From IMG/VR virus record IMGVR_UViG_3300042154_004306: a stretch of 64,000 bases of DNA. One strand, 5' to 3'. Positions 21,320-57,629 of the stretch are shown piece by piece. A program made the translations under genes and the position numbers. Positions within the stretch are counted from its first letter, which is position 1. Every line of letters starts with the position of its first letter. The notes below the pieces were generated by a model, which saw nothing but the letters and a program-made list of their open reading frames with translations, ran no database searches and was not told where the DNA came from. The DNA comes from a virus (taxonomy: Duplodnaviria > Heunggongvirae > Uroviricota > Caudoviricetes).

Positions 21320-21595
21320 ATGATAACCGTAACTGACTACTGGGCTCCATGGTGCGGCCCTTGCAAAACGCTAATGCCAACAATTGAAAAACTAGCAGAG
21401 GAATATAACGTTCCAGATAGCGAGGTTCAGATCAAAAAGGTGAACGTCGATGAAGACTCTGAAACTTCAGCCAAGGTCGGAATTCGTTCGATCCCTACTC
21501 TCGTATTTGAAAAGGATGGAGCTGAGGTTGAGCGTAGAAGCGGAATCTTACAGTATGCTAAAATTAAAGAAATAATCGAAAATCTAAAAGCCTAA
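21320..21595 (+). CDS. trx: thioredoxin
   Basis: 91 aa with WAPWCGPCK active site. Confidence 0.8.
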   Translation: MITVTDYWAPWCGPCKTLMPTIEKLAEEYNVPDSEVQIKKVNVDEDSETSAKVGIRSIPTLVFEKDGAEVERRSGILQYAKIKEIIENLKA

Positions 21596-22278
21596 TGCAA
21601 ATAACTTTCATATCTGACACTCACTGGCTGGTGAGAGACGCTCAAGCCTGTAGAGACATGAATGATCTCCTACCCGGCGGCCCAATCTTGGTGCACGCAG
21701 GGGATGTGAGCGGCAGAGGCACTGAATTTGAGATCAGAAAGTTTCTTGACTGGTTTAGTAAGTTGCCGTACACGCATAAAATCTTAATCTCAGGCAATCA
21801 TGACTTCTTTTTTGAAGTTGCCAAACCTGAGGAGGTTGAGGCCTTGATTGCAGAGTATCCTGGAATTACCTATCTAAACGATAGCGAAGTAACCGTTGAG
21901 GGCATAACGTTTTGGGGAAGCCCAATCACTCCGTTCTTTCATAATTGGGCATTCAATCGATATTCGGATGAAATTAAACCGCATTGGGACCTGATTCCAG
22001 AAGGAATTGATGTCCTGATAACTCACGGTCCACCAAAAGGAATACTTGATTTTACCGAGTATGATCGTGACCATGTTGGCTGCCCAACTCTATTGGAGAA
22101 GGTTAAACAGATAAAACCCAAAGTTCATGTCTTTGGCCACATTCATGAGGCTAGAGGTAAGGAAGAAATTGATGGAACAATTTTCATCAATGCCTCAATG
22201 GTTACTCTAAAATATGAGTTACGATATGAACCTCCATACATAATAGAAATTGAACCAAATTCTCAAAATTTAGTATAA
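21595..22278 (+). CDS. calcineurin-like metallophosphoesterase
   Basis: 227 aa. GDVSGRG, GNHDF and GHIHE motifs. Confidence 0.7.
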   Translation: MQITFISDTHWLVRDAQACRDMNDLLPGGPILVHAGDVSGRGTEFEIRKFLDWFSKLPYTHKILISGNHDFFFEVAKPEEVEALIAEYPGITYLNDSEVTVEGITFWGSPITPFFHNWAFNRYSDEIKPHWDLIPEGIDVLITHGPPKGILDFTEYDRDHVGCPTLLEKVKQIKPKVHVFGHIHEARGKEEIDGTIFINASMVTLKYELRYEPPYIIEIEPNSQNLV

Positions 22279-23572: not shown

Positions 23573-23657
23573 GGAGAGGTGGCAGAGCGGTTGAACGCGG
23601 CGGTCTTGAAAACCGTTTTAGGTAACACTAACGGGGGTTCGAATCCCTCCCTCTCCG
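23573..23657 (+). tRNA. tRNA-Ser (anticodon TGA), type II with long variable arm
   Basis: Acceptor ggagagg/cctctcc perfect; anticodon arm gcggt-cTTGAaaa-accgt; T-arm ggggg-ttcgaat-ccctc. Confidence 0.85.
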
Positions 23658-23680
23658 CAAAAATTAAGCAAAATGGAACT

Positions 23681-24658
23681 ATGAAAAAAATTGCACTAAT
23701 TAGCACCTTTTGTGATACTATTGAAAAGCAAAATGTTTTAAAGGAAAATATCTTAACGATTAAGAGATTGGGAATTGATGTATTCGCAATTAGTCCCATA
23801 GAAGTTCCCTATGATATTATAAAACTTTGTGACTATTTTTTCTACACTAAAGAAAACCCAATATTGAATTGGCCGGTCCGAGCTTTTACATTTTGGAAGG
23901 CTGATTGGTCAGTTGACGGTTTTGTAAGAATGCATCGTAATGTTGGCGATTACGGTTGGGCCGCTTTGTATCAAGTAAAAAAAATGAGTCAAATTGCTTT
24001 AACTTATGACTATGATTTATTTTATCATCTAATTTATGATCTAGATATCGATGACGAGGTCATCAAAGAAATAACCGAAAATCGAATGAACTTAGTTCAT
24101 TCGAGAGTTAGCTTAGGCGATGATAGCCTAATATGGGAAGCTACTCTACATTTTATGGTGTTTGATAGAGAATCAATGATTAATATTGAAAAAGAGATAG
24201 AGTTAGACGAATATTTGAGCAAAAATGGTATTGCTGAAGATCAAGTTATTAAGTGGAAGAATAAATTTAATCTTTCAGTATCAGATCACTATATAAAGGA
24301 CAAAATTTATTATTGGGAAGAGTGTGACATTTTTAACTATTCCCAAAATACAAAATATAAGATGTTCATTGGTAAGACTGATGAACTTAGCACTTTGATA
24401 AATAGTGATGGTTTGGAAGAACATATCATATCTCCAAATTTAAGATTTTATTTTTATGAGTTTATCGAAACTCAAAATTTTAAATTTGAAATTAACGAGT
24501 CAATTTATGAATTGACTCTTGGAAACAATAAAATGATTGAATTTAACATTCGTTCGCATGATGTCGCTAATCTTAAAATAACAGACAATGATGTTACGTT
24601 CGACTATTCAAATATAATCAAAGAAATTAGTAGAAATTTAGTTTCTTTTGATCGATAA
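23681..24658 (+). CDS. hypothetical protein (paralog of 16933..17946); start moved to the ATG downstream of the tRNA
   Basis: Track ORF 23579 starts inside tRNA-Ser; [10 protein letters not shown] at 23681 is the first ATG after the tRNA. Confidence 0.5.
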
Positions 24659-24681: not shown

Positions 24682-25371
24682 ATGATTAAAAACACGACGC
24701 CTTATTTAGGAAAGATCAGACTTAAGTTTGAAAAGTTTCCTCACTATTCAGGAAAAGATAAGCTGAATAAAATTCACCTAAACCTTGGATTCACCAAGTT
24801 GGTCAGCCGCATAACACCAGTCAGAGATGAGAACGGTTTTGTAGTAAACCCCGATTGTATTAACCTGATCCGAAAGAACACAGGGCTTAAGGTTGAAACT
24901 CACACGTTTGGTCCAAATGACGAGCATGAATTACCTAATTCATGCATGAACGCTGATGGACAGTACGTTGGCTCCATTGAAGAAGGTTGGTGGTATTACA
25001 ATAACGGGCTCAGATCAACTAAAGGTTCTCACCCTCATACCGCATGGAGCAAGGAGGCAAAGCAATGGATAGGATATTCTCATCGTGGTGCTTGTGCATT
25101 CGGTAAGGGTGATAAGTTATTCGATGCAAATTGGGTTCCAAATGATGATGAGCTGCTTGCTCTTGAAAAACACTACGTAAAACGCTTGGGAGAATTTCAA
25201 ATCGAATACGCCGACTGGTCAAAGAGCAGTTCCGAACATAAGGCCGAAGAATTCACTCTTAACTCATGGGCAGCAAGCCACATTCCTTTCAAGTTACGCG
25301 GAAGTAAAACGATTCATTCTTACGAAGATGCCTATAAAGCTGCCGTTAATTTTGCCAAATACATAGGTTAA
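24682..25371 (+). CDS. hypothetical protein
   Basis: 229 aa ORF. Confidence 0.45.
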   Translation: MIKNTTPYLGKIRLKFEKFPHYSGKDKLNKIHLNLGFTKLVSRITPVRDENGFVVNPDCINLIRKNTGLKVETHTFGPNDEHELPNSCMNADGQYVGSIEEGWWYYNNGLRSTKGSHPHTAWSKEAKQWIGYSHRGACAFGKGDKLFDANWVPNDDELLALEKHYVKRLGEFQIEYADWSKSSSEHKAEEFTLNSWAASHIPFKLRGSKTIHSYEDAYKAAVNFAKYIG

Positions 25372-27712: not shown

Positions 27713-27789
27713 TGATCTCGTAACTCAGCTGGTTAGAGTACCATACTTTTAATATGGGAGTCACAGGTTCGAATCCTGTCGGGATCACC
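27713..27789 (+). tRNA. tRNA-Lys (anticodon TTT), CCA encoded
   Basis: Acceptor gatctcg/cgggatc; D-arm actc-agctggtta-gagt; anticodon arm ccata-cTTTTaa-tatgg; T-arm acagg-ttcgaat-cctgt; 3' aCCA. Confidence 0.85.
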
Positions 27790-27801
27790 AAAGACAAAAT
27801 A

Positions 27802-27872
27802 CGCGGGTGTGGTGCAATGGTAGCATATCGGTCTCCAAAACCCTTGACGGGAGTTCGAATCTCTCCACCCGT
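27802..27872 (+). tRNA. tRNA-Trp (anticodon CCA), weak anticodon stem
   Basis: Acceptor gcgggtg/cacccgt; T-arm gggag-ttcgaat-ctctc; loop cTCCAaa; only 3 clean bp in the anticodon stem. Confidence 0.5.
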
Positions 27873-27973
27873 GCTCTAGATAGTTTTCAAAAGAAAACCA
27901 AACTTTGGATGTTATGGTATATTATTATTATTAATAACAAAGAGAGTCCTTTGACATATTGGAGATCGCAAAT

Positions 27974-28046
27974 TGTCCTTTAGCTCAATTGGCAGAGCAT
28001 CTGTTTTACATGCAGAGGGTTATGGGTTCGAATCCTACAGGGACAA
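27974..28046 (+). tRNA. tRNA-Val (anticodon TAC)
   Basis: Acceptor tgtcctt/agggaca (one G-T); D-arm gctc-aattggca-gagc; anticodon arm tctgt-ttTACat-gcaga; T-arm atggg-ttcgaat-cctac. Confidence 0.6.
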
Positions 28047-28096
28047 CAAATCTTGGGATTAATTACCCTAAGACTGGATGATTCGAAGCATCCGAT

Positions 28097-28191
28097 TGAT
28101 TATGGTGTAATGGTGCACACTGGCCCCGGAAAGTAAGCCTCACAGCTGAAATCAGGGCCGGGGGATTAAGGTTCGAATCCTTATTAGTCAG
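28097..28191 (+). tRNA. atypical tRNA-like gene with ~28-nt insertion in place of the anticodon loop
   Basis: Acceptor tgattat/ttagtca (6/7); D-arm gtgt-aatggtgc-acac; perfect T-arm taagg-ttcgaat-cctta. Between them a ggccc/gggcc stem encloses 28 nt (cggaaagtaagcctcacagctgaaatca). Confidence 0.3.
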
Positions 28192-28200
28192 CAAATATAT

Positions 28201-28273
28201 TGTGGGGTAGAGAAGTGGTCATCTCACAAGGCTCATAACCTTGAGATCAGGGGTTCGAATCCCTTATTCGCAA
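28201..28273 (+). tRNA. tRNA-Met or tRNA-Ile2 (anticodon CAT), acceptor stem rich in G-U pairs
   Basis: D-arm gaga-agtggtca-tctc; anticodon arm caagg-ctCATaa-ccttg; T-arm agggg-ttcgaat-ccctt; acceptor tgtgggg/attcgca gives 3 WC + 3 GU + 1 mismatch. Confidence 0.5.
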
Positions 28274-28278
28274 CGAAT

Positions 28279-28384
28279 GATTAGATGGACGTAATGAGGG
28301 ACGGCTCCCGAATCCCCAACTCGAAAGAGGTAAGGTCGTCTACCCCGTCTAGCACGGTATCCGGTTCGAGTCCGGCTCTAATCG
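28279..28384 (+). tRNA. long (~106 nt) tRNA-like gene, possibly type II or intron-containing
   Basis: Perfect 7-bp acceptor gattaga/tctaatc; T-arm ccgg-ttcgagt-ccgg. The interior could not be folded by eye into D/anticodon/variable arms. Confidence 0.3.
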
Positions 28385-28494
28385 CCCGGATTCATGTACG
28401 TCGAGCGCAAACCAATTGCTCTTCAGGTAGATTTACATGGATAAACAACCCGTCACGGTATGCTCTACGGGGCAGGAGTGAACTGAAGAGAAAC

Positions 28495-28571
28495 GGACTG
28501 GTAGTTCAGCTGGTTAGAATGCCGCCCTGTCACGGCGGAGGCCACATGTTCGAGTCCTGAAAGGTCCGCCA
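28495..28571 (+). tRNA. tRNA-Asp (anticodon GTC), CCA encoded, T-arm and acceptor imperfect
   Basis: 5' two-thirds nearly identical to bacterial tRNA-Asp (TAGTTCAGCTGGTTAGAAT, ccgcc-cTGTCAc-ggcgg). T-stem acatg/cctga and the last two acceptor pairs mismatch. Confidence 0.45.
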
Positions 28572-29009: not shown

Positions 29010-29678
29010 ATGATGAATGAATTCCAAAAGTACGCAATGAGCGAGCACGGTGTGTCATCGCTGAATTTGCATAATTATCAAAAACAAGTTGAAGCATCAA
29101 TGACGCCTTATATCCTAGAGGAACGCGAGTTACGCGTTACCCAAATGGACATTTTTTCCAGATTAATGCGCGATCGTATCTTATGGGTCGCGGGTCCGGT
29201 GAATGACTATATGTCAACCATCGTGCAGGCTCAACTAATGTTTCTAGACTCAGTTGATGGCAAGGACATTACCATGCACATTGACTCTCCAGGCGGATCG
29301 GTTAAATCAGGTCTCTCAATGGTCGATGTGATGGACTACATCAATGCAGACATAGTCACGGTTAATACTGGAATGGCAGCATCGATGGGGTCTGTTCTAC
29401 TAGGCGCAGGAACAAAGGGCAAGAGGTTTTCACTAAAGCACTCACGTACAATGCTACATCAATCAAGTGGAGGTTTTAGCGGAAATATTCAGGATGCTGA
29501 AGTTGACATGGAAGAATGGAAGAAGATCAATGATGAGCTCTTCATTCTGCTGGGCAAGTACTGCGGTAAAAAACCTGAACAGGTTAAGAAAGACGCAACT
29601 AGAGATTTTTGGTTGACTGCTGACGAAGCAGTTAAGTACGGTATAATTGATCAAGTAATCCTAAAGAAGGCTAAATAA
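29010..29678 (+). CDS. clpP: ClpP-family serine protease
   Basis: 222 aa. Ser (GMAASMGS) / His / Asp triad regions conserved; ILWVAGPVND ... HIDSPGGSV. Confidence 0.85.
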   Translation: MMNEFQKYAMSEHGVSSLNLHNYQKQVEASMTPYILEERELRVTQMDIFSRLMRDRILWVAGPVNDYMSTIVQAQLMFLDSVDGKDITMHIDSPGGSVKSGLSMVDVMDYINADIVTVNTGMAASMGSVLLGAGTKGKRFSLKHSRTMLHQSSGGFSGNIQDAEVDMEEWKKINDELFILLGKYCGKKPEQVKKDATRDFWLTADEAVKYGIIDQVILKKAK

Positions 29679-30094
29679 TGAGTAGAGTATTAATTCTCCT
29701 ACGTGGAGTTCCAGGTTCAGGCAAGAGCACCTTTGCCAATCACATGTGGTCAAGCGGAGTCGTGTTTGAAGCCGATAAATTCTTCTATGATGAGGACGGT
29801 AAATATCAATTCGACGGCTCTAAATTAAAAGAGGCCCATGAATGGTGTCGTCGATCAGTACAGGAGGCAATGGAACAGAACCACCTAAGCGCAGGTCAGC
29901 ACTATCCGGAAATTATTGTGTCAAACACATTCACACGAGAGTGGGAGATGCAGGCATACTTGGATTTAGCAAAGCAATTCGAATACAATGTAGTTTCTTT
30001 GATTGTTGAGAATCGACATGGTGGCAAGAACTTGCATGGAGTACCCGATGAGAAGGTACAGGAGATGAGAGCCCGATTTGAAGTTAAATTATGA
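29678..30094 (+). CDS. P-loop kinase resembling the kinase domain of T4 polynucleotide kinase (Pnk)
   Basis: 138 aa. LILLRGVPGSGKSTFANHM Walker A at the extreme N-terminus as in T4 Pnk; no phosphatase domain. Confidence 0.5.
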   Translation: MSRVLILLRGVPGSGKSTFANHMWSSGVVFEADKFFYDEDGKYQFDGSKLKEAHEWCRRSVQEAMEQNHLSAGQHYPEIIVSNTFTREWEMQAYLDLAKQFEYNVVSLIVENRHGGKNLHGVPDEKVQEMRARFEVKL

Positions 30095-30411
30095 GAATGG
30101 GCAAATCAACATTCAAAAGAATAGTAAAGGATTGGAATGAAGCTACTGCTGCTGAAGTCTGGGAAGGTATCAGAGATAACTTCACCTTTGGTTTTATTGG
30201 TGCAACTCTTGTCGTGTTCATTGCAACCAGAACGGATATTGCTGTACTATTCGGTTACCTTGCCTATTACTTTTACATGGGCACAATCGTGAATCGACCT
30301 AAATACGTAACCCACTTGGGCAAGCTGATAGTGTTTCCAATTCCTTCAGCTCTTGGAGCATTTACCGGTTACAAATTGTCGTATTCGATTATTCAACTAA
30401 TAACATCATGA
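30091..30411 (+). CDS. small membrane protein
   Basis: 106 aa, 2-3 TM helices. Confidence 0.4.
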   Translation: MRMGKSTFKRIVKDWNEATAAEVWEGIRDNFTFGFIGATLVVFIATRTDIAVLFGYLAYYFYMGTIVNRPKYVTHLGKLIVFPIPSALGAFTGYKLSYSIIQLITS

Positions 30412-31484
30412 TCTTAACTAGAGAAATCATACAGCCTTATATCGATAAAGGATTAGTGGAAGCAAAGGATCATCCAACGCTTCCACTCACCATTTATAAT
30501 TACTCAAGAGAGTGCCAGTTTGAAAAGAGTTGGGATCAGGTGACTCTACAATGTCGAGGGCTAATCCTTGATCATGAGAACCGGTTGGTCGCTAGAGGTT
30601 TCAATAAATTCTTTAATTACGAAGAGGTTGAGAACACTGGCCAGATTCCAGTGAATGATAAATACGTTTACGTGCAGGAGAAAATGGACGGCTCTTTAGG
30701 AATCCTATTTCATTACAATGGTGAGTGGCACATGGCAACTCGCGGATCATTTGAATCTGAGCAAGCAAAAGCCGGTCTGGAGATTCTAAAAAAGAAGTAC
30801 GATCTTGGAAAGTTTCATTCAACTGTTTGTTACATTTGCGAGATTATCTATCCTGAGAACCGAATTGTAGTTGACTACTCTGAAGAAAAGATTACCTTCT
30901 TATCTGCTGTCATGGAAGGCCGTGAAGTAAATTGGGGAACGGCTAAAGCACTATTTCACTCATCTGGGATCCGTGAAGAGGATATTGTGTGGACGGTGAT
31001 GGATACTATTACTGAGAATATTTTTAAACGATACAAGAACCTTAACGAATCGGATAAGGAAGGTTTCGTCCTACGATTCCATCCATCAAATTACAGAGTT
31101 AAGATCAAGTTCGATGAGTATGTCAGATTACACCGACTGTTGACCAATTTTTCAAATATCGATATTTGGGAATGCTTGAGAAATGGAGATGACCTAAGCG
31201 AGTACATTGAGAGCGTGCCAGACGAATTTGATTCATGGGTCAGGGGCTGGATCAGGGCTCTTACGTTCGCGTTCGTCATGAAGGAACTTGAGGCTAAAAA
31301 GATTTTTGCCGAGTTATTAAGCCAAGATATTAATACCAAGAAGGAGGATGCCTTGTGGATTCAAGCAAATTGCCCAAAGGTGTACCAAGGTCTGGTGTTC
31401 TCAATGTTACAGGGCAAAGACTACAGTCAAACAGTTTGGCGAATGATTCGCCCTGATTATCAAAAACCTTTCTGGAACCGTTAA
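30408..31484 (+). CDS. RNA ligase, Rnl1-like
   Basis: 358 aa. Nucleotidyltransferase motif I YVQEKMDGSLG resembles T4 Rnl1 KEDGSL; size comparable to T4 Rnl1. Confidence 0.6.
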   Translation: MILTREIIQPYIDKGLVEAKDHPTLPLTIYNYSRECQFEKSWDQVTLQCRGLILDHENRLVARGFNKFFNYEEVENTGQIPVNDKYVYVQEKMDGSLGILFHYNGEWHMATRGSFESEQAKAGLEILKKKYDLGKFHSTVCYICEIIYPENRIVVDYSEEKITFLSAVMEGREVNWGTAKALFHSSGIREEDIVWTVMDTITENIFKRYKNLNESDKEGFVLRFHPSNYRVKIKFDEYVRLHRLLTNFSNIDIWECLRNGDDLSEYIESVPDEFDSWVRGWIRALTFAFVMKELEAKKIFAELLSQDINTKKEDALWIQANCPKVYQGLVFSMLQGKDYSQTVWRMIRPDYQKPFWNR

Positions 31485-37246: not shown

Positions 37247-37915
37247 ATGAAAATTACACTACAACCACATCAGCGTATATGGTTTACATCAGATACTCAC
37301 TATAAACACTCAAATATCTGTAGGGGAACCTCTAATTGGCCTGAGTCCAGCAAGACTAGGGATTTTGATACCTTAGAGCAGATGAATGAGACCGTAATCA
37401 ATAACATCAATCACCTAGTTAGGGAAGATGATATTCTATTCCACTTGGGAGACTGGTCATTCGGAGGATACGAGAATATAGCAGAGTTTAGGGAGAGAAT
37501 CCTGTGCAAGAACATTCATCTACTATTAGGAAATCACGACCATCACATCGAGAGGGACAAGGGAGGAATCCGAAAGTTATTCAGTTCGGTACACGATTAC
37601 TTGAGACTTGAGCTTACTGTTCCAAACGAACCTAATTCAATAAACTCTGGCGAGGTCATTAAAAAGACATTTGTCATGTGTCATTACCCAATTGCAAGCT
37701 GGCACGACATGAACCGTGGAGTCATTCACCTACATGGTCACGTTCACTTGGGTCCGGAGAATAAACTACATGATGGCAAGGCAATGGATGTCGGTATGGA
37801 CGGTAATGATCTAAACCCTTACTCTCTACAGGAGATCGCAAAGATCATGAGGGACCGCCCGGTTAGGTGTTTAGTTTTGCCAAACGATCATCACGAAACA
37901 AATGAAGGCAGATAG
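37247..37915 (+). CDS. calcineurin-like metallophosphoesterase (second copy)
   Basis: 222 aa. FTSDTHY, GDW ... GNHDHH, GHVH motifs. Confidence 0.65.
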   Translation: MKITLQPHQRIWFTSDTHYKHSNICRGTSNWPESSKTRDFDTLEQMNETVINNINHLVREDDILFHLGDWSFGGYENIAEFRERILCKNIHLLLGNHDHHIERDKGGIRKLFSSVHDYLRLELTVPNEPNSINSGEVIKKTFVMCHYPIASWHDMNRGVIHLHGHVHLGPENKLHDGKAMDVGMDGNDLNPYSLQEIAKIMRDRPVRCLVLPNDHHETNEGR

Positions 37916-37933: not shown

Positions 37934-38671
37934 ATGAAACCATTTTTTAAATTTTACGAGGTAGGAGGCAAGGTCAGGGACGAAATCTTGGGCCTGCAGT
38001 CAAAGGACGTTGATTTCGTTGCCGTTCCCAAGGAGTCTTTAATTGAAGAGTTTCCGGAAGCAGAAGACCTTTTCAAAGTGCTAGTTGACTACTTGACTCG
38101 TGAGAAGTTTCAAATCTTTTTAGTGACCGCTGACTGTTATACGATCAGGGCTAAATTTCCAGATGGTCACAAGTACCAGGGAGTTGCGGATTTCGTGATG
38201 GCTAGAAAAGAGGTTGGATACTTGCCTTTTACAAGAACACCGATCGTGAAGCCTGGAACTCTATTCGATGATTTACAAAGACGTGACTTCACGCTCAATG
38301 CAATCGCAAAGGACGAGGATGGAGCACTGATTGATCCATTCAACGGAATTGAAGATTTGAAAAATGGAGTTCTAAGAACACCTTTACCTTGCGAAATTAC
38401 CTTTAAGGACGATCCTTTGAGAATCTTAAGAGCGATCAGATTCATGGTCACTAAGGACTTTGTAATCACAGCCGACATGCATCAGCACATCAAGCACTTC
38501 GATTATGAAGTCTTCATGCCGGTCGTCTCAACTGAGAGAATCCGAGAAGAACTGCTTAAATGTTTTAAGCACGATACTGCAGAAACTCTCAGAGTATTGA
38601 TGAGGTATCCTGCACTATTTGAATACATTTTTATGACAAAGATTTGGTTGAAACCAACAATGGAGGAATAA
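37934..38671 (+). CDS. tRNA nucleotidyltransferase / poly(A) polymerase head-domain protein (CCA-adding-type)
   Basis: 245 aa. FYEVGGKVRDEILGLQSKDVDFV matches the GG(A/K)VRD ... DxD class II NTase motif of CCA-adding enzymes. Confidence 0.6.
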   Translation: MKPFFKFYEVGGKVRDEILGLQSKDVDFVAVPKESLIEEFPEAEDLFKVLVDYLTREKFQIFLVTADCYTIRAKFPDGHKYQGVADFVMARKEVGYLPFTRTPIVKPGTLFDDLQRRDFTLNAIAKDEDGALIDPFNGIEDLKNGVLRTPLPCEITFKDDPLRILRAIRFMVTKDFVITADMHQHIKHFDYEVFMPVVSTERIREELLKCFKHDTAETLRVLMRYPALFEYIFMTKIWLKPTMEE

Positions 38672-39201: not shown

Positions 39202-40275
39202 ATGGAAAGAAAATTAGCAAGCATTCAAAGAGTCCGCGCAATCAAACCGATTGAGGGAGCGGATGCAATCGAAGTAGTTCAGATCAATAGCTGGAACGTA
39301 GTTGCAAAAAAAGGTGAATTCACAGAGGGCGACCTCTGCGTTTATTTTGAAATAGATTCGTTTCTACCGATGGAGAAGGACTTTGAATTCCTAAGAAAGT
39401 CTTCATATAAAAAGATGGGAGACTTAGAGGGATTCAGATTAAAAACCATTAGGCTTAGAGGGCAGGTTTCGCAAGGGCTGTGTTTACCATTAAGTGTCCT
39501 GGAAAAGGACGATGAAATGAAGATTGGAATCAGCAAACAGCCTTGGGGGGATCAGCTTCAGCTTGGACCCTATGATGATGCAATAGTTATCGAAGAAGGC
39601 ACTGACGTTACTGAGTACATGTGCGTGCTTAAATACGAGCCTCCCATTCCAGCAGAATTGGCAGGTAAGGTTAAAGGTATGTTCCCATCATTCATTCATA
39701 AGACTGATGAGGACCGTGTACAAAACTTAACCGACCATTATGAAAGTTGGAAAGATCAGGCTTTTTACGTAACTGAGAAATTGGACGGTTCGTCCGCAAC
39801 TTTCTACCTGAAGGACGGAGAGTTTGGAGCGTGTTCACGTAATTTGGAACTGCTGGAGACTGATGAAAATACGTTTTGGAAAGTCGCTAGAGAAATGGAG
39901 ATTAAGCCTAAATTAGAGTCAGTTGGCTATAATATTTGCATTCAAGGAGAATTGGTAGGCGAGGGAATTCAAAAGAACCCTTATAAATTAAGAGGACAGA
40001 CTGTGAAGTTCTTTAATGCTTTTAATATCGACACTCAAGAATACTTGGGATTTGAAGAGTTTACTAAACTAGTCTTGGGATTTGGTTTACCAATTGTTCC
40101 AATAGTTGAAACCAAATTCGCTCTGCCTGATACAATAGATCAATTACTCGAGTACGCTGATTCAAAATCAAGTCTTAATCCAAATTTTGATAGGGAGGGC
40201 GTTGTCATCAGAAGTCTTGATCGAAAAATTTCGTTCAAGGTAATTTCAAATAAATTTTTACTGAATGAAGCATAA
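39202..40275 (+). CDS. second ATP-dependent RNA ligase-like nucleotidyltransferase
   Basis: 357 aa. Motif I YVTEKLDGSSATFYL (KxDGS with no Arg, as in RNA ligases) preceded by an N-terminal ~150 aa domain. Confidence 0.5.
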   Translation: MERKLASIQRVRAIKPIEGADAIEVVQINSWNVVAKKGEFTEGDLCVYFEIDSFLPMEKDFEFLRKSSYKKMGDLEGFRLKTIRLRGQVSQGLCLPLSVLEKDDEMKIGISKQPWGDQLQLGPYDDAIVIEEGTDVTEYMCVLKYEPPIPAELAGKVKGMFPSFIHKTDEDRVQNLTDHYESWKDQAFYVTEKLDGSSATFYLKDGEFGACSRNLELLETDENTFWKVAREMEIKPKLESVGYNICIQGELVGEGIQKNPYKLRGQTVKFFNAFNIDTQEYLGFEEFTKLVLGFGLPIVPIVETKFALPDTIDQLLEYADSKSSLNPNFDREGVVIRSLDRKISFKVISNKFLLNEA

Positions 40276-40672
40276 AATATACTTAGACGACATTAGGACC
40301 CCAATCGATAAGAGCTGGATCGTAGTTAGAAGCTACGAGGAGTTTGTTGAGAAAATAACTGAACTTGGATTAGAGAATATTGAACTAATTTCGCTGGATC
40401 ACGATTTAGGAGATAGCGCAATGAGGGAATGGCATAAAAACGTTTACCATAACTACGAATTGAATTACGATAATATTACCGAGAAGACTGGTATGGACTG
40501 TACTAAGTGGATGGTTGAACAATGGTTAGACGGAGCATCGGTAGTTAAGGTTGTTATACATTCAGCTAATGCAATCGGATCAGCAAATATGATGGGCTAC
40601 ATTAATAATTACCGCCATATCAATAGATTACCTCAAGATTGTATAAGAGTTCAGTGGCCGCACACCGTCTAA
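40265..40672 (+). CDS. hypothetical protein
   Basis: 135 aa ORF. Confidence 0.45.
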   Translation: MKHKIYLDDIRTPIDKSWIVVRSYEEFVEKITELGLENIELISLDHDLGDSAMREWHKNVYHNYELNYDNITEKTGMDCTKWMVEQWLDGASVVKVVIHSANAIGSANMMGYINNYRHINRLPQDCIRVQWPHTV

Positions 40673-40742
40673 TTAGGTCTCACAGACAAATAAACTTATT
40701 TAGCCACATTACTTATACACTTTGTTATAAAACGTTATTTAT

Positions 40743-40943
40743 ATGGAAATCAAATTTTATTGGAACGGAAGTTTTGCTGGAACTAATCACAGTATGACAA
40801 TAAACGGAAAGAATATTAGATTAGGTGGTATTGTTTCAAATGAAAATGAAGCAAAACTGAAAGCAGTTGAGATATTGAAGCAAGATTATGAAATTGACTA
40901 TAATGTTGATGAAATAAAATTTGAGTGGGGTGGTCGTTTATAA
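40743..40943 (+). CDS. small hypothetical protein (cassette-region ORF)
   Basis: 66 aa; followed by hairpin element at 40948. Confidence 0.4.
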   Translation: MEIKFYWNGSFAGTNHSMTINGKNIRLGGIVSNENEAKLKAVEILKQDYEIDYNVDEIKFEWGGRL

Positions 40944-40947
40944 TGTT

Positions 40948-40997
40948 TTATAACGATTACAAATAAAACATCGTTTTAATGTGTTTTATTTGTTGTT
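40948..40997. repeat. hairpin element, ATCGTTTTAATG-loop subtype
   Basis: ttataacgatt-ACAAATAAAACA-tcgttttaatg-TGTTTTATTTGT-tgttataag. Confidence 0.6.
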
Positions 40998-41042
40998 ATA
41001 AGTATGTAAAACAAAAATTATACAAATTAAAAGAAATAAATT

Positions 41043-41231
41043 ATGAAAACATTATTAAGTAGAGTAGAAGAAGAAAGTGTTAATTATGCAACAGCAGAAC
41101 ATGCAGCGATAGACCATTTAAAAATGGCATCTGCACATTTATTTGAAGAAACAGAAGGTAGAGACATTGATAATTGGTTATCAGATATTGAAAAAATAAT
41201 TCAAAAACTTGAGAACAGAATAAACTCATAA
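41043..41231 (+). CDS. small hypothetical protein
   Basis: 62 aa. Confidence 0.4.
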   Translation: MKTLLSRVEEESVNYATAEHAAIDHLKMASAHLFEETEGRDIDNWLSDIEKIIQKLENRINS

Positions 41232-41312
41232 TTTTTGTTTTATTACTTATAACGGTTTGCAGCTAACCGAAGGCGGTGATTTAATAGATAAATTAACTTA
41301 AAAGAATATAAT

Positions 41313-41531
41313 ATGAATGAGCAATTAACTATCAAAAAAGCACGAAACCACCGCTTTTGGTTAGGTGGTGTTATGTGCCGTTTATTCCATTACATAAGAA
41401 CTATTGAAGAGTGTAAATTCATTGATAGAGTTGATGGAAGAGAGGTAGGGCAATTTGAATGTGTAAAGTGTGGAACTAAATTTATGGCTAATAAAAAGCG
41501 AAGTTGGTTTCGTGTCTATAATGGCACATAA
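41313..41531 (+). CDS. small zinc-ribbon protein
   Basis: 72 aa, CVKCGTKF. Confidence 0.4.
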   Translation: MNEQLTIKKARNHRFWLGGVMCRLFHYIRTIEECKFIDRVDGREVGQFECVKCGTKFMANKKRSWFRVYNGT

Positions 41532-41580
41532 CGGTTGAGTGTAAAAAATCGTTTTAATGTTTTTTACACTTTGTTATAAA
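41521..41580. repeat. hairpin element, ATCGTTTTAATG-loop subtype
   Basis: cacataacggttgag-TGTAAAAAA-tcgttttaatg-TTTTTTACA-ctttgttataa. Confidence 0.6.
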
Positions 41581-41604
41581 TATGTAAAACTAAAATTATA
41601 CAAT

Positions 41605-41757
41605 ATGAAAAAATACTTTATTAAACAAGAATTGATGTGTGGTGAAGTTTATCACATGATATATGTAAGATGGTTTGGATTATTTGAATCATTTTATGAA
41701 AGGTGGAATACTTATGAAACATCGAAAATAAGACTGAACGAATTAAACAATTCATAA
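41605..41757 (+). CDS. small hypothetical protein (start at MKKYFIKQ)
   Basis: Trimmed from track ORF 41557, whose 5' part lies in the hairpin element. Confidence 0.35.
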   Translation: MKKYFIKQELMCGEVYHMIYVRWFGLFESFYERWNTYETSKIRLNELNNS

Positions 41758-41773
41758 TTTTAGTTTTATTATT

Positions 41774-41850
41774 TATAACGTTTTGCGTATAAAAGAAAGC
41801 TACGAAGCAGAGCCTTTAGCGTTGGGTAGCTTTCTTTTATACGCTGTTAT
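41774..41850. repeat. hairpin element with 19-bp perfect stem
   Basis: ataacgtttt-GCGTATAAAAGAAAGCTAC-loop-GTAGCTTTCTTTTATACGC-tgttatc. Confidence 0.7.
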
Positions 41851-41894
41851 CGGATGCCCTTTCAATGAATTATTAAATTAAAAACAGACACAAA

Positions 41895-42284
41895 ATGAAC
41901 AGACAAATTAAATTTAGGGCTTGGGATAAAACATACAGCCTAATGAATTACAAAGTGCAAGTTGGCAATACTGACCTCGCAGACCCCAATTACACTTGCA
42001 ATAGCATTTGGGTTGATAGTGGTGATTTTGTAACTATTGGATGGATGAATGCTGATGAAAATTGTATTGACCTTATGCAATTTACTGGATTGAAAGATAA
42101 GAATGGCAAGGAAATTTATGAGGGTGATTTAGTTCAGCACGATGCTTGGAACTATCCATTTGAAGTAATTTTCAATGATGAAAAAGCAAGGTTTGTTTGC
42201 AAGTTACAAACGGGATTAACTCAATACATAGATTGTGAAAGATTGGTTGTTGTCGGTAACATTCACGAAACGGTATCTGCTTAG
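41895..42284 (+). CDS. YopX-family phage protein
   Basis: 129 aa. KFRAWDK ... QFTGLKDKNGKEIYEGDLV ... VVGNIHE matches the YopX domain. Confidence 0.7.
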   Translation: MNRQIKFRAWDKTYSLMNYKVQVGNTDLADPNYTCNSIWVDSGDFVTIGWMNADENCIDLMQFTGLKDKNGKEIYEGDLVQHDAWNYPFEVIFNDEKARFVCKLQTGLTQYIDCERLVVVGNIHETVSA

Positions 42285-42393
42285 GGTTGCCGATAACGAC
42301 TGCAAATATACAACGTTTTTTTGTAGAAAGTTTCAAATTAATTTTTTTTTTTGATAAAAATGTGGTATATTTGTTGTTATAAAACGGTTAGAT

Positions 42394-42603
42394 ATGAAAA
42401 AAGGACAAAAATTTATCATGAAAATTGATAAGTATTACGGTAAAGATAATTTACTGAAACAAGGGGATGTTATTGAATTTGTGGGTAACAAAAGAAGTTC
42501 AACAGGAATGTTGTCTGTATTCAAAAATCAAAATGGATTGGTTTTTAAAACTTATGCTATATCTATGGATAAATTTTTGACAGATTATACAAATGTTTTA
42601 TAA
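42394..42603 (+). CDS. small hypothetical protein
   Basis: 69 aa. Confidence 0.4.
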   Translation: MKKGQKFIMKIDKYYGKDNLLKQGDVIEFVGNKRSSTGMLSVFKNQNGLVFKTYAISMDKFLTDYTNVL

Positions 42604-42702
42604 CAGTTAGGTATATGTGAAGTACCTTACCACAGAAATTAATAATTTAGTAGAAACTTTATGAGGTATTTCACATATACTTTGTTATAAACAGTAATTA
42701 AT

Positions 42703-42912
42703 ATGGAAAAAAAACTTAAACAAGGAACAGTAATAACCGCAACACACGAAGGTGGTTCATTTTGGAAAATAGACGATAGTTTTATTTTTACAGATACACC
42801 AGAAAGTGGATTACAAACTTACAATAATGAAGGAAAGAAATTATATTTTCCAAAAAATCACGACTTATCTGGTTGCGGTTTTCCAGAAGATATGTTTGAA
42901 ACACCGAATTAA
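42703..42912 (+). CDS. small hypothetical protein
   Basis: 69 aa. Confidence 0.4.
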   Translation: MEKKLKQGTVITATHEGGSFWKIDDSFIFTDTPESGLQTYNNEGKKLYFPKNHDLSGCGFPEDMFETPN

Positions 42913-42921
42913 TTATTGTTT

Positions 42922-43050
42922 ATAACGTATCGCAGATAAGCGAAGGCAAAGATTTAGAAACGAAAACTTTAATTTTAAAACAGAATATAATATGAAAACG
43001 AGAATATCAATTTACCACAGAACCTTTGCTTTTGCTTATGTGCTGTTATG
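42922..43050. repeat. hairpin element (long-loop variant)
   Basis: 5' arm ataacgtatcgcagataagcgaaggcaaag pairs with 3' arm ctttgcttttgcttatgtgctgttat. Confidence 0.55.
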
Positions 43051-43099
43051 CCTTCGTTCTTTTTCACAAATCAATTATTAACAAACAAAAAATAAAATT

Positions 43100-43348
43100 A
43101 TGTCAGAATTAAAAACAGAACATTTAGTGTATATGTCAGACGAGATGTACACACCAATTCACTACAAAGGAATTATAGTCCAACAACCTTTTTTTGAAGG
43201 TAAAGGGAATCATTCGGTTGCTCAATTAGAAGCAATATGTGAACAATTTAAAGAGTATGTTCATCAGCAACAAATAATTAAGCAAAATTGTATGAAACAT
43301 ATTGTCGAATTAAAGTTCGGTGTCGAGTTCCCACAGAATGAGGCATAA
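43100..43348 (+). CDS. small hypothetical protein
   Basis: 82 aa. Confidence 0.4.
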   Translation: MSELKTEHLVYMSDEMYTPIHYKGIIVQQPFFEGKGNHSVAQLEAICEQFKEYVHQQQIIKQNCMKHIVELKFGVEFPQNEA

Positions 43349-43390
43349 CGTTTGCGGATATATGAATGTAAAAAATTAATAATTAGAACG

Positions 43391-43750
43391 ATGATAACAA
43401 CACAAAATTTAACAGAATTAGGTTTTAGTGAGATACTTGATGTATTCACTGGGAAACACGTTTGGGTTTTAGGTGAAGAAGATACTGAGATATGCGGAAA
43501 CCCTTGTAAATTGCCAATATTTTATTACAACATAGAAACCCAAACTTGTAAAGTAGTTAGGGGTGAATTTTGTGTTGTTCAACGAGAATGTAAAACAGAG
43601 GAAGAAATTATAAAGTTTGTAGAATCTATTAATTTTTTATTTCATATATCCGTTGTTATAAATAGTAAAAAACCTATCGAACAAGTATTATCCGAAGCGA
43701 TTAAAGAATCTTATGATAAGATAAAAGACAATTTAGAACCACCACTTTAA
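43391..43750 (+). CDS. hypothetical protein (start at MITTQNL)
   Basis: Trimmed from track ORF 43352; 120 aa. Confidence 0.4.
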   Translation: MITTQNLTELGFSEILDVFTGKHVWVLGEEDTEICGNPCKLPIFYYNIETQTCKVVRGEFCVVQRECKTEEEIIKFVESINFLFHISVVINSKKPIEQVLSEAIKESYDKIKDNLEPPL

Positions 43751-43828
43751 GGTTTTTTATTGTTTATAACGGACACAGATATATTTCTGGTTTTCTTTTT
43801 AATATATACTTAAAAATAGTAAACGAAG

Positions 43829-44167
43829 ATGAAAGATTTAAAACACATAAAAAGATTTAACGAGTCAGAAGAAAACTTGAATATATCTGATGTTAGTAGT
43901 AGTAAAAATCAGCATTTACTTGTGGTTCATCATGAAAGTGGTGATGAAATACATTTTACTGTTATAGATTATTCATTATATCCACAGATTGATAAAATGA
44001 TAAATGATGGACTTAATACACAGAAACAAGTTGAAAATATGTTGAATATAATCTATAACAACACATTAGAACATTTGATGTGTCAAACTTATGTATTAGA
44101 AGACTACACTAAAATTGGAAAATATAACATAGTAAAATGTATTCATCTACCAGAGTTGGGTAGTTGA
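43829..44167 (+). CDS. hypothetical protein with shared N-terminal module MKDLKHIKRFNESEENLNISDV
   Basis: 112 aa. 5' region and first ~28 codons duplicated at 45016. Confidence 0.5.
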   Translation: MKDLKHIKRFNESEENLNISDVSSSKNQHLLVVHHESGDEIHFTVIDYSLYPQIDKMINDGLNTQKQVENMLNIIYNNTLEHLMCQTYVLEDYTKIGKYNIVKCIHLPELGS

Positions 44168-44180
44168 TTTTTATTACTAC

Positions 44181-44312
44181 TAACGTTTCCACGCTTGGCG
44201 AAGAAGCGGAATTGAAAGCACATACTTTCAGTTTAGTAAAAAAGCCAATAGGAAGCACGAATGTTCAATTTAGCACTAAAACCGCTTTTTTGCCAAACGT
44301 GTGTTATAACCA
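44181..44312. repeat. hairpin element (long variant)
   Basis: ctaacgtttccacgcttggcgaagaagcgg pairs with aaaaccgcttttttgccaaacgtgtgttataacc. Covers spurious track ORF 44164..44376. Confidence 0.5.
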
Positions 44313-44350
44313 GTGCTTTTTACGAATTATAAACTTAAAAAATAAACACA

Positions 44351-44635
44351 ATGTCAAAATTAAACAGAGAATTTGATTACAAATATTACAAATTCAACAC
44401 ATCAGTTGAGTTAAACACCAAAGTCGAAAAAAGACTAAATGGTAAAAGGTGGCACACAATTATAACTAATTGTATGGGTGGCAACAATTACTACCAAAAA
44501 GATGAAATAGAAACTTTCCAAATTGAGGAATATGTTGAAAAACATAAACAGTTAGCTATTGAATACATTGATAAATTAACTTACAAGCCACAAAGTTTTG
44601 AAGAGCAATTGTTGTCAGGACTTGGGTTCTCGTAG
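44351..44635 (+). CDS. small hypothetical protein
   Basis: 94 aa. Confidence 0.4.
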   Translation: MSKLNREFDYKYYKFNTSVELNTKVEKRLNGKRWHTIITNCMGGNNYYQKDEIETFQIEEYVEKHKQLAIEYIDKLTYKPQSFEEQLLSGLGFS

Positions 44636-44642
44636 CATTGGT

Positions 44643-44760
44643 TATAACGGACAGGTATAACCGAAGGCGGGGATTAAGTGCAACCACCCTAACCAACGGC
44701 ACAAAGTAAATTGGTAGTACAATAGCTGAATGACGGATATACGCCCCGCTTTTGGTTATG
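44643..44760. repeat. hairpin element
   Basis: ttataacgg ... ATAACCGAAGGCGGGG-loop-CCCCGCTTTTGGTTAT. Confidence 0.6.
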
Positions 44761-44790
44761 CAATGTTAGGCGTATGTAAATTTTACGATT

Positions 44791-44940
44791 ATGGGACTAC
44801 TAATATTTTTTGGAATAGTTATACTGTTTATGATAGCAGATGACAGACAAATTAAAAAGGACATTGATGCAGCAACCAAAATAAAATGGACAAAGAAAGA
44901 TGCGGAGAACTATTATAAAAACTTTGACGAATGGCAGTAA
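44791..44940 (+). CDS. small membrane protein (49 aa; below the ORF-track cutoff)
   Basis: MGLLIFFGIVILFMIADD hydrophobic N-terminus; sits between two hairpin elements. Confidence 0.3.
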   Translation: MGLLIFFGIVILFMIADDRQIKKDIDAATKIKWTKKDAENYYKNFDEWQ

Positions 44941-45015
44941 AATTTATTACGCCTAACGATACTCAGATATATTTAGGTTTTCTTTTTAATATATACACTA
45001 AAATAACATAAGAAG

Positions 45016-45327
45016 ATGAAAGATTTAACACACATAAGGAGATTTAATGAGTCAGAAGAAAACTTGAATATATCTGATGTTAGAAGTAGTAAATTAAACA
45101 TACATTATTTTATGGAACAACTTTCAATTGATGATATAAGAAAATCTATTGAAGATAATTTACATTACCAAAAAACAGGTAAAAGATTATTTGATAGGAC
45201 TATACAAGACGAAATATACGAAATATACTTTAGTGGATTAGGTGAAAGTAAATCTACTATGATGTTTGAGTCGTATGATATTATATGTAGGGAACTTTCT
45301 AAGAGGTGGTTTTTGGGTAATGTTTAA
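45016..45327 (+). CDS. hypothetical protein with shared N-terminal module MKDLTHIRRFNESEENLNISDV
   Basis: 103 aa; N-terminal module paralogous to 43829, C-terminal body unrelated. Confidence 0.5.
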   Translation: MKDLTHIRRFNESEENLNISDVRSSKLNIHYFMEQLSIDDIRKSIEDNLHYQKTGKRLFDRTIQDEIYEIYFSGLGESKSTMMFESYDIICRELSKRWFLGNV

Positions 45328-45335
45328 TTTATTAC

Positions 45336-45466
45336 TTCTAACGGCTGACGCTATACGAAGGCAGGGGTTAAGATGCACTCCCTTTCAGCCTTGCACAAAT
45401 GATAAATAGATGCACACCGCTTCAATTAGCAGTAAAGCCCCTGCTTTTGTATAGCGTATGTTATAG
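45336..45466. repeat. hairpin element
   Basis: cttctaacggctgacg-CTATACGAAGGCAGGGG-loop-CCCCTGCTTTTGTATAGCG-tatgttatag. Confidence 0.6.
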
Positions 45467-45488
45467 GGCGTTTTTAATTCAAATCAAA

Positions 45489-45668
45489 ATGGCAAAAGAG
45501 TACATTAAAATCGAACTTACAGAAGATGACATCAAGAAAATGGTTGCTGAAAAATACAACCTTGACATCAACAGGACAACAATTAACGTATCACATTACG
45601 CTGGTGATGCTCGTGAACCTGCATACACTTCAATAGTAGTAACAGGTCAACGTGATGGTGGGGTGTAA
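45489..45668 (+). CDS. small hypothetical protein (start MAKEYIK)
   Basis: Trimmed from track ORF 45399, whose 5' part is the hairpin element. Confidence 0.4.
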   Translation: MAKEYIKIELTEDDIKKMVAEKYNLDINRTTINVSHYAGDAREPAYTSIVVTGQRDGGV

Positions 45669-45737
45669 AATGCCCTATAACGGTTGCAGATATACCTAGT
45701 TTGGGATTAAATACTAGAAACTTTAAATTAAGATAAA

Positions 45738-45986
45738 ATGAAAAAAGAAGAACAAAACTTGAATAACGCAGAGAACCCCAAATTGGGTATATCTGATGTT
45801 ATGTGTAGTGGTTATACAATTAGATTTAATGAAGTAGACACTAACGAAATTATCATCAATAAAGATGCGATAAACATAAATGACTTTGAACAGATGAAAG
45901 TATCTGGAACAATTGTAGATTATGAAATTGATGATAATGGAGTGAAAATTATAAAGAAGTTTGATTTAAGGAGCGTGTCTCTTTAA
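45738..45986 (+). CDS. small hypothetical protein
   Basis: 82 aa; N-terminus NPKLGISDV weakly resembles the NLNISDV module. Confidence 0.4.
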   Translation: MKKEEQNLNNAENPKLGISDVMCSGYTIRFNEVDTNEIIINKDAININDFEQMKVSGTIVDYEIDDNGVKIIKKFDLRSVSL

Positions 45987-45994
45987 CCATTACA

Positions 45995-46088
45995 CATAAC
46001 GGTTGGGTGTATGAGAAGGTTTGCTTAGATGAACTTTCAAATTACCACAACTATTGATAGCAAACTTTCTTATACACCTTGTTACCAA
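45995..46088. repeat. hairpin element
   Basis: cacataacggttg-GGTGTATGAGAAGGTTTGC-loop-GCAAACTTTCTTATACACC-ttgttacca. Confidence 0.65.
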
Positions 46089-46121
46089 CAGTACGGATTA
46101 TTAATATAAAACTTAAATAAA

Positions 46122-46373
46122 ATGGAAAAGAAAATCGAAAACATTGAGGATATATATCCTTTGACCATAGTGAAAATGCGTTATGGTGGAAAAATTGTAA
46201 TCTTCAACGCTGATAATGATGCGGGATTTGTTGATTCTGTACAAGGTGATGAAGAAGTTTATTATATCATTAATGACTGGTTAGAAGAACATGTATCACC
46301 TTGCTTGTATGGTATTGGCGACACAATTTGGTCAGCATTTGAAGATTACAAAAAACGTTTATATAAGTACTAA
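46122..46373 (+). CDS. small hypothetical protein
   Basis: 83 aa. Confidence 0.4.
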   Translation: MEKKIENIEDIYPLTIVKMRYGGKIVIFNADNDAGFVDSVQGDEEVYYIINDWLEEHVSPCLYGIGDTIWSAFEDYKKRLYKY

Positions 46374-46386
46374 CGTAGTATTGTTG

Positions 46387-57602: not shown

Positions 57603-57629
57603 GATAAAGTAAATAACATATATAACCAA

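Follow-up and report, generated by a model that had tools for sequence, protein, structure and literature searches.

Non-tRNA RNAs have been known in phage tRNA clusters since the description of T4 RNAC (species 1) and RNAD (species 2), two stable RNAs that accumulate late and whose role is still unknown (PMC3014915, PMC9697503). In the T4 sequence, RNAC is 139 nucleotides (nt) long, and the two genes adjoin in the tRNA cluster. Comparative material for such RNAs has been scarce until now, which is part of the reason that no function has been assigned to them. In the Lak megaphages, tRNA genes contain "enigmatic introns", inserts that can be present or absent, with one insert that is itself tRNA-like and with tRNA-Phe(GAA) among the genes concerned (10.1101/356790). 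YrlA, a bacterial Y-RNA-like RNA, and other tRNA mimics have also been described (PMC4201824). Here, we describe a tRNA array in the IMG/VR virus record IMGVR_UViG_3300042154_004306 (Duplodnaviria; Heunggongvirae; Uroviricota; Caudoviricetes). The whole stretch of 64,000 nt that was analysed is referred to below as the window, and the array lies at positions 27,713 to 28,571. It contains canonical tRNA genes, two tRNA-like elements, A and B, and a third element, C, that does not resemble a tRNA (Table 1). A and B very probably represent two selected, non-decoding RNA families that share a tRNA scaffold.

The original prediction had described canonical tRNA genes mixed with two tRNA-like genes that keep their acceptor and T arms and have extra sequence in the interior. 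This description was correct, and neither A nor B is accepted as an ordinary tRNA by ARAGORN or Rfam. Element A scores 27.2 bits with the Rfam tRNA model (RF00005), under the gathering score of 29, and is not called by ARAGORN in standard mode. When A is aligned to the tRNA model, the acceptor, D and T arms fit, with 31 nt in place of 6 loop positions. The minimum free energy fold is a cloverleaf in which the anticodon arm consists of a 7-bp stem closing 28 nt, in agreement with the 28-nt insertion previously noted in A. The 5-bp anticodon stem and the 7-nt loop with U33 and a purine at position 37 are missing. Two features had not been noted before, the 49-nt leader in front of A and the conserved element C. 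The leader forms two hairpins, hp1 and hp2. The hp2 loop, AUUCGAAG in the window, is GUUCGAAA in most family members. Both invariant leader loops (28058-28066 and 28081-28088) contain 6-nt palindromes, UAAUUA and UUCGAA, which could be candidates for loop–loop dimerisation or DNA sites.

Relatives of A were found in metagenomes with a pattern spanning hp2 and the start of A, which had at least 120 matches in contigs; the counts for family A are from the matches listed. The family comprises at least 85 distinct full units of 66-132 nt, all from freshwater phage metagenomes, with the 49-nt leader, the tRNA-like acceptor, the D arm and the T arm as common features. The same pattern gave one match in 185,579 genomes, on a short 1.5-kb contig of a metagenome-assembled genome, and family A appears to be phage-specific. 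Neither family A nor family B is represented in Rfam 15, and no description of either was found in the searchable literature. The window contains no transfer-messenger RNA (tmRNA) according to the ARAGORN tmRNA search, and there was no tmRNA match in Rfam. Downstream of A, five related contigs (L125, L140, L143, L174 and L178; L-numbers denote related contigs compared with the window) have another conserved element, absent from the window, in which a hairpin resembling hp1 (loop AGUAAUUAA) comes first and a long-range stem, AACAAGAAGA...TCTTCTTG, is also present.

Covariation in family A was assessed on 36 distinct leader-plus-scaffold sequences from which the arm had been cut out, so that no alignment choices were involved. 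Paired cells amounted to 93.7%, compared to 82.1% in shuffles. The covariation score was 0.372, compared to 0.137 in shuffles (none of 500 reached 0.372) and no more than 0.085 with slid partners. Fourteen pairs have changes on both sides. Such changes are found at all seven pairs of hp1 and at three of the six pairs of hp2, which is 100% paired and displays three or four pair types at each of three positions. In the acceptor, pair 4 is UA, CG, UG or AU, and a U-U or U-C mismatch is conserved at position 7-66; G is the usual discriminator. G-U pairs are frequent, and would be A-C on the opposite strand; the structure therefore belongs to the plus-strand RNA. A GAAA tetraloop receptor (CCUAAG/UAUGG) in the leader and acceptor was considered and rejected, because the CCUAAG strand covaries as an ordinary helix. 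The anticodon, by comparison, is not maintained: standard ARAGORN called 6 of the 85 units as tRNAs, intron mode called 21 with 11 different anticodons, and the other 64 received no anticodon call. No family member keeps a consistent anticodon.

Element B was not called by ARAGORN and had no Rfam match at E ≤ 10. Its single-sequence fold was no better than that of shuffles (z = 0.09), in keeping with the earlier remark that the interior of this 106-nt gene does not fold by eye. The acceptor in the window is a perfect 7-bp stem (GATTAGA/TCTAATC) with G73. In the anticodon position is an arm with a 3-bp stem and the loop UCUAGCA, which has C at position 33 and varies at several positions in the family. 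A 20-nt pattern from the T arm matched 38 viral contigs, and family B consists of 30 distinct sequences of 91-134 nt with one common plan. From the 5' end, the acceptor stem is followed by UG, a 4-bp D-like stem (GRCG/YGUC, mostly G-U pairs) enclosing UAAUGAGG, a small hairpin with an NGGN loop, GAAUCC and a variable insert (4-46 nt; that of the window is CCAACUCGAAAGAGGUAA and includes a GAAA hairpin). The 3' part is made up of a 3-bp arm with a variable loop of 6-12 nt, mostly 7 nt, and the invariant T arm.

With the variable loops removed, 27 distinct sequences of family B had 91.9% paired cells, compared to 84.5% in shuffles, and a covariation score of 0.301, compared to 0.147 (0.301 was reached by none of 500 shuffles). 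Compensatory changes occur at six of the seven acceptor pairs, and GC, AU, UA and GU all occur as the third pair of the small hairpin. Many B members have the acceptor AGUCAGG/CCUGACU and A73 in common with a Leu-type class II scaffold in the same arrays, which suggests that B was derived from a tRNA-Leu-like gene. Families A and B both appear to be kept by selection in many uncultured freshwater phages. An apparent third scaffold family has constant Leu-type class II acceptor, D and T arms (AGTCAGGTGGCGGAATGGTAGACGC...ACAGGTTCGAATCCTGTCCTGACTA) and differing interiors. Its members (L104, 2223-2316; L103, 2001-2095 and 283-368; L110, 690-781; L115, 4554-4637) are called by ARAGORN as Glu(ctc), Pro(cgg), His(atg), Pro(agg) or undetermined.

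The arm that replaces the anticodon arm is the variable part of A, and the interval from D stem to T stem ranges from 19 to 86 nt. Type I arms (44 units by the arm classifier, with the motif parsed in 43 sequences) follow the plan GNN-GAAC-GGAGUA-(variable hairpin)-GAAAGGGGA-CNC. Their stem is only 3 bp long, and there is no anticodon loop. Covariation is seen at the first two closing pairs (GC, AU, UA), and the hairpin is free between flanking motifs that hardly vary; the arm motif is kept across divergent scaffolds. The AGUA opposite GAA, beside tandem G-A pairs, suggests an S-turn or loop-E-like irregular helix. A K-turn was rejected by inspection, as there is no 3-nt bulge ahead of the G-A pairs. 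Short arms, such as GAG-A-CC-GUAACU-GG-AG-CUC, are found in 14 units. The type II arm of the window, CUGGCCC-CGGAAAGUA-(hairpin)-GAAAUCA-GGGCCGG, occurs in 12. Type III arms (n = 7) contain a nested T-arm-like hairpin, and the remaining arms (n = 8) are of other kinds.

With identical leader and scaffold, the arm of A is a 45-nt type II arm in the window, 21 nt long in L191 and L138, and a 52-nt hybrid resembling a recombinant between type I and short arms in L003. Between the window and L191 or L138, the stem of the arm itself differs, not merely a loop insert. Among pairs of units with scaffolds at least 97% identical, 26% have arms that are less than 60% identical, and one pair combines 100% identical scaffolds with arms of different types, I and II. 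The lower arm of A is a cassette: genomes that are otherwise near-identical differ in it, and it is exchanged independently of the scaffold.

A and B each retain the parts of a tRNA that are read by the processing machinery: a 7-bp acceptor stacked on a T arm with a GTTCRA loop, and a D-type element. The acceptor and T stems covary in both families, and the anticodon half is replaced by other structure. Both elements are part of the tRNA array and are encoded on the gene strand, and the ends of C are the ends of B and tRNA-Asp. We propose that A and B would be co-transcribed with the tRNAs, excised by RNase P and the 3' tRNA processing enzymes and subjected to CCA addition, and that they would accumulate as stable small RNAs, like T4 RNAC and RNAD. 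The scaffold would provide processing and stability, and the variable arm would be the working part. In most A members, this arm would present a purine-rich irregular helix with the AGUA/GAA (S-turn or loop-E-like) signature, capped by the free hairpin. It would most likely bind a protein, our preferred guess being a host factor that recognises the shape of tRNAs; anticodon nucleases and other tRNA-directed defences or sensors would be examples. Such a factor would be recruited or titrated by the scaffold, with specificity given by the arm, and the RNA would then act as a decoy or sponge.

These proposals do not carry equal weight. The combination of A and B as RNA families, tRNA-like processing and a protein-binding arm is favoured slightly over its opposite. 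Decoy or defence-resistant variants had been among the readings offered in the original prediction, and a function specifically as a decoy or sponge for nucleases or sensors is a tentative suggestion. Somewhat more doubtful still is a natural "tRNA scaffold" system of large freshwater phages, in which a constant, RNase P-processable tRNA top half, with the two-hairpin leader ahead of it, would display interchangeable arms. These arms would be reshuffled among co-circulating genomes and would serve as anti-defence decoys or aptamers aimed at host tRNA-directed immunity. Within that scheme, there is a smaller possibility that the arms are excised by a new phage splicing route through the adjacent kinase, phosphoesterase and Rnl1-type ligase.

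Several observations weigh against a processed RNA with a protein-binding arm. The processing and stability of A and B are suggested by shape and position only, and the S-turn assignment rests on a sequence signature. None of the arm types is tied to any one host defence, and the open reading frames (ORFs) scanned against Pfam yielded no candidate protein partner for the arms. The variability of the arm could reflect relaxed constraint and recombination instead of an arms race. The array of the window looks partly decayed, with weak tRNA-Met and tRNA-Asp genes and 5 tRNAs, compared to up to 19 in relatives. Finally, there is no sequence similarity to the T4 RNAs beyond the 11-nt T loop (blastn-short).

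The strongest of the rival explanations, although unlikely, is that the elements act in cis on the array transcript, either controlling, as punctuation or folding elements, the order and efficiency with which RNase P and 3' processing release the neighbouring tRNAs, or protecting the polycistronic precursor, with no role after excision. In favour of this reading, T4 dimeric tRNA precursors are known to need ordered processing. The elements sit exactly between tRNAs and share their ends, and the leader hairpins are conserved only ahead of A, as seen for 115 of 128 hp1-type hairpins. A spacer role, however, requires neither an arm motif conserved in 43 parsed sequences, nor a full tRNA-like fold, nor the conserved interior of B. 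In addition, B occurs alone, far from other tRNAs, in L088.

Intron-containing tRNAs had been suggested from the outset, and the data give them weak support at best. With introns allowed, ARAGORN reads A of the window as tRNA-Phe(GAA), the 21-nt intron being at the canonical position 37/38, and in some relatives with type II arms (L137 and L227) removal of the insert would leave a textbook UUGAAA..U loop. In such a scenario, A and B would be decoder tRNAs with a new short intron, comparable to those of Lak phages, in which insert presence/absence is polymorphic and both Phe(GAA) and a tRNA-like insert are involved (10.1101/356790). The intron would be excised by an unknown endonuclease, after which enzymes of the phage (kinase, phosphoesterase and Rnl1-type ligase) would rejoin the halves; genes for a complete heal-and-seal set lie shortly downstream of the array. 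Most family members do not fit this model. It can be forced onto only 21 of the 85, with 11 different anticodons, and type I arms, with their 3-bp stem, offer no anticodon loop. The window A itself has G33 in place of U33, and its scaffold and G73 are unlike those of the tRNA-Phe of this phage clade, which has an unrelated scaffold. The insert-free allele of L191 (71 nt), with a 3-bp stem and a 12-nt interior, scores 26.5 bits against a threshold of 29, and between this contig and the window the stem, and with it the whole arm, is replaced. Rfam scans of the array, A and B at E ≤ 10 gave no group I or other intron family, no bulge-helix-bulge (3-4-3) could be drawn by inspection, and ARAGORN produced no intron model for B. 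Intron-bearing decoder tRNAs are improbable because the family has no consistent anticodon and even its shortest alleles fall below the tRNA threshold, and we regard decoding by A as unlikely.

A speculative explanation, and a slightly less probable one, is that A or B is charged by an anticodon-blind synthetase and delivers or sequesters an amino acid outside decoding. B would then be the candidate for leucyl-tRNA synthetase, as many of its members have an acceptor in common with the Leu-type class II scaffold and the discriminator is mostly A. The acceptor/T-arm minihelices are intact, and a CCA-adding-type enzyme is encoded nearby. On the other hand, B of the window has a different acceptor stem and G73, A has the conserved U7-U66 mismatch and G73, and the scanned ORFs included no gene for a synthetase or transferase. 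Least probable is the suggestion, made in the original prediction, that the elements are decaying pseudogenes, or else recombination debris of a shrinking array: despite the 5 tRNAs in the window compared to up to 19 in arrays of relatives, the mismatches in its Met and Asp tRNAs and the mosaic arrays (e.g., Val or Gln in one slot), it is already largely refuted by covariation, with every scaffold helix in both families maintained by compensatory changes, arm motifs kept across divergent scaffolds and C 100% identical where the neighbouring tRNAs differ.

Table 1. Features of the tRNA array and RNA-repair genes (window coordinates).
Feature	Position	Strand	Remarks
tRNA-Lys(UUU)	27714-27790	+	CCA encoded; ARAGORN; Rfam tRNA 67.7 bits
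tRNA-Trp(CCA)	27803-27874	+	ARAGORN; Rfam 57.9 bits
Conserved 99-nt spacer	27875-27973	+	Nearly identical in L191 and L138 (alignment); fold no better than shuffles
tRNA-Val(UAC)	27974-28047	+	ARAGORN; Rfam 57.6 bits
Leader of A	28048-28096	+	Found before every family member; single-sequence fold z = -2.87
Leader hp1	28051-28057/28067-28073	+	7-bp stem, loop AUUAAUUAC
Leader hp2	28075-28080/28089-28094	+	6-bp stem, T-loop-like loop AUUCGAAG in the window
Element A, tRNA-like RNA	28097-28191	+	Acceptor 28097-28103/28184-28190; discriminator G 28191; D arm; T arm
Arm of A, replacing anticodon arm	28120-28126/28155-28161	+	7-bp stem; closes AGUA 28132-28135, hairpin 28136-28147, GAAA 28148-28151
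tRNA-Met/Ile2(CAU)	28201-28274	+	G-U-rich acceptor stem; ARAGORN; Rfam 53.6 bits; L191 comparison
Element B, tRNA-like RNA	28279-28384	+	106 nt; acceptor 28279-28285/28377-28383; discriminator 28384
B, D-like stem	28288-28291/28337-28340		
B, hairpin a	28298-28309		
B, GAAA hairpin	28320-28329		In variable insert
B, short arm	28345-28357		3' side
B, T arm	28360-28376		3' side
Element C	28385-28494	+	110 nt; four helices (P1-P4), then a conserved single-stranded tail at the 3' end; no gap to B or to tRNA-Asp
tRNA-Asp(GUC)	28495-28571	+	CCA encoded; ARAGORN; Rfam 39.3 bits
P-loop kinase (AAA_33)	29678-30094	+	
ORF between kinase and ligase	within 29678-31484	+	Unknown product
Rnl1-type RNA ligase	30408-31484	+	
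Metallophosphoesterase	37247-37915	+	
CCA-adding-type nucleotidyltransferase	37934-38671	+	
Second RNA ligase	39202-40275	+	PHA02142 OB domain
Second metallophosphoesterase	21595-22278		The sole RNA-repair gene not downstream of the array

Element C is known from ten distinct relatives at 88-100% identity, and is 100% identical in L191 and L138 in spite of the different neighbouring tRNAs. RNAalifold gave two domains (P1-P2 and P3-P4) with 29 pairs, four of them changed on both sides, followed by an unpaired tail, GAACUGAAGAGAAAC. There are no tRNA features and no Rfam match. A search with a 14-nt pattern from C returned one new variant and otherwise almost only chance matches. C is probably a further conserved structured RNA, not tRNA-like, although with weaker support than A and B. 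An ORF at 28285-28560 that spans B, C and tRNA-Asp was rejected as protein-coding, given that the insert lengths in B (4-46 nt) are not multiples of three and that L003 has a tRNA between B and C.

The window represents a large tailed phage genome that uses the standard genetic code. It has no close cultured relatives, with no megablast or blastn nucleotide match among 50,697 phage records, and at the protein level the best matches (56% identity) come from uncultured "huge phage" genomes. Hundreds of related contigs are found in IMG/VR and freshwater metagenomes, many of them with tRNA arrays of up to 19 genes (20 with a separate tRNA-Ser). ARAGORN found six tRNAs in the window, five of them in the array, and Rfam agreed. 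These five are the Lys, Val, Met, Trp and Asp genes that had been reported as foldable, and the encoded CCA of the Lys and Asp genes could be confirmed in the sequence. The reliance on G-U pairs noted at the same time is real: the acceptor stem of tRNA-Met has three G-U pairs, as well as one mismatch. tRNA-Asp has mismatches in the T and acceptor stems, both of which are degraded compared to L191.

L191 and L138 are collinear with the entire array of the window. In the slot at 27974-28047, however, between identical flanks, the window has tRNA-Val(TAC) and these two contigs have tRNA-Gln(TTG) (1405-1476 in L191). Complete tRNA genes are therefore exchanged as cassettes as well, making the arrays recombination mosaics. 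Recoding of stop codons by a suppressor tRNA (CTA in B; TTA and TCA tRNAs in relatives) was rejected for the window: reassignment of TAG or TGA hardly lengthens the ORFs, and the CTA of B differs among relatives. Suppressor-type tRNAs adjoin B in close relatives, namely TTA (ochre) in L003 (773-850) and TCA (opal) in L001 (605-677) and L002 (2354-2426). The sixth tRNA, a lone tRNA-Ser(TGA) at 23573-23658, lies 4 kb upstream of the array and overlaps the 5' end of the mechanical ORF 23579-24658, the true start of which is probably further downstream. The window begins inside another tRNA-like gene (1-79), consisting of a T arm and the acceptor strand TCTGACT-A. There, an 11-bp helix (CCTGTAATCTA/TAGATTACAGG) runs into the T loop, and the acceptor type is that of the Leu-like scaffold of related arrays. 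At 57666-57740, a terminator-like hairpin followed by a T run bears a T-loop-like sequence, GGTTCGAGTCC, with no tRNA or Rfam call.

Proteins encoded in the window include topoisomerase II subunits, a prohead protease, the Rnl1-type ligase and a Tad6-like protein. The latter, ORF 24682-25371, matches Pfam Tad6 (E = 1e-20), an inhibitor of type I Thoeris. Two stretches, 40276-48031 and 57603-61061, have a low GC content (0.29-0.32, compared to ≈0.40 elsewhere) and no ORF of 150 amino acids or more; small genes in blocks are the probable content. The first of these stretches is followed by a gene for a tyrosine recombinase (48032-48844). No TROVE (Ro60-type) domain was found in the 40 window ORFs scanned against Pfam. 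With the exception of one phosphoesterase, the RNA-repair genes lie within 12 kb downstream of the array (Table 1). The tool set of kinase, phosphoesterase, ligase and CCA-adding enzyme repairs tRNAs cut by host anticodon nucleases. Its presence means that tRNA-directed conflict matters to this phage. It has also been argued that phage tRNAs themselves serve to evade host anticodon nucleases (PMC10264068).

How do A, B and C compare with the systems described previously? The closest experimental precedent is T4, where RNAC and RNAD also lie inside a phage tRNA cluster, on the tRNA strand, side by side and flush with tRNAs. RNAC matches A and B in having a large interior unlike that of a tRNA and in its 3' end, where an acceptor-like strand comes directly after the T arm (CCGGG-TTCGAAT-CCCGG); RNAD, without tRNA features, is the counterpart of C. 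This resemblance is one of kind. Homology to rnaC and rnaD was not found, and the T4 RNAs have no two-hairpin leader and no known arm polymorphism. The Lak phages, which could be compared by published description only, share with our phages oversized tRNA-like genes in very large phage arrays and inserts that are polymorphic between near-identical genomes. Their tRNA-like insert recalls the type III arms of family A, with the nested T-arm-like hairpin, and a Phe(GAA) call is found in both. Removal of the Lak insert is reported to leave a recognisable tRNA, however, whereas the insert-free alleles and most other members of family A are not credible tRNAs, and the host environments and the sequences differ.

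With canonical tRNAs (RF00005), A and B share the acceptor, the D-type stem, the T arm with its GGTTCGA(A/G)TCC loop, the discriminator and the position in the array. They differ in lacking the 5-bp anticodon stem with 7-nt loop and a conserved anticodon, and their tRNA score is below threshold (A) or absent (B). In YrlA, too, a tRNA-like module fused to another RNA module serves as a handle for processing, stability or protein recruitment, but there the tRNA-like domain is internal and the ends of the RNA form the Ro-binding stem; the array, A and B gave no Y RNA match in Rfam. The tRNA-like/microRNA units of gammaherpesvirus 68 and the engineered "tRNA scaffold" RNAs likewise consist of a tRNA-like handle fused to another RNA module. 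The gammaherpesvirus 68 units depend on RNA polymerase III and tRNase Z.

As kinds of object, both the stable non-tRNA RNAs of phage tRNA clusters and the oversized tRNA-like genes of huge phages are already known. New are the organisation into families, the leader that stays constant and the arm that behaves as a cassette. With no fewer than 85 variants of A and 30 of B, the two families are large and alignable, and their constant parts are clearly set apart from the variable ones, which indicates the nucleotides to mutate and the arms to use as bait. Oversized or "undetermined" tRNA calls in large phages should be counted neither as decoding capacity nor as pseudogenes. If the arms of A do act as decoys or aptamers, they would constitute a new class of RNA-based counter-defence and the natural counterpart of the engineered tRNA scaffold.

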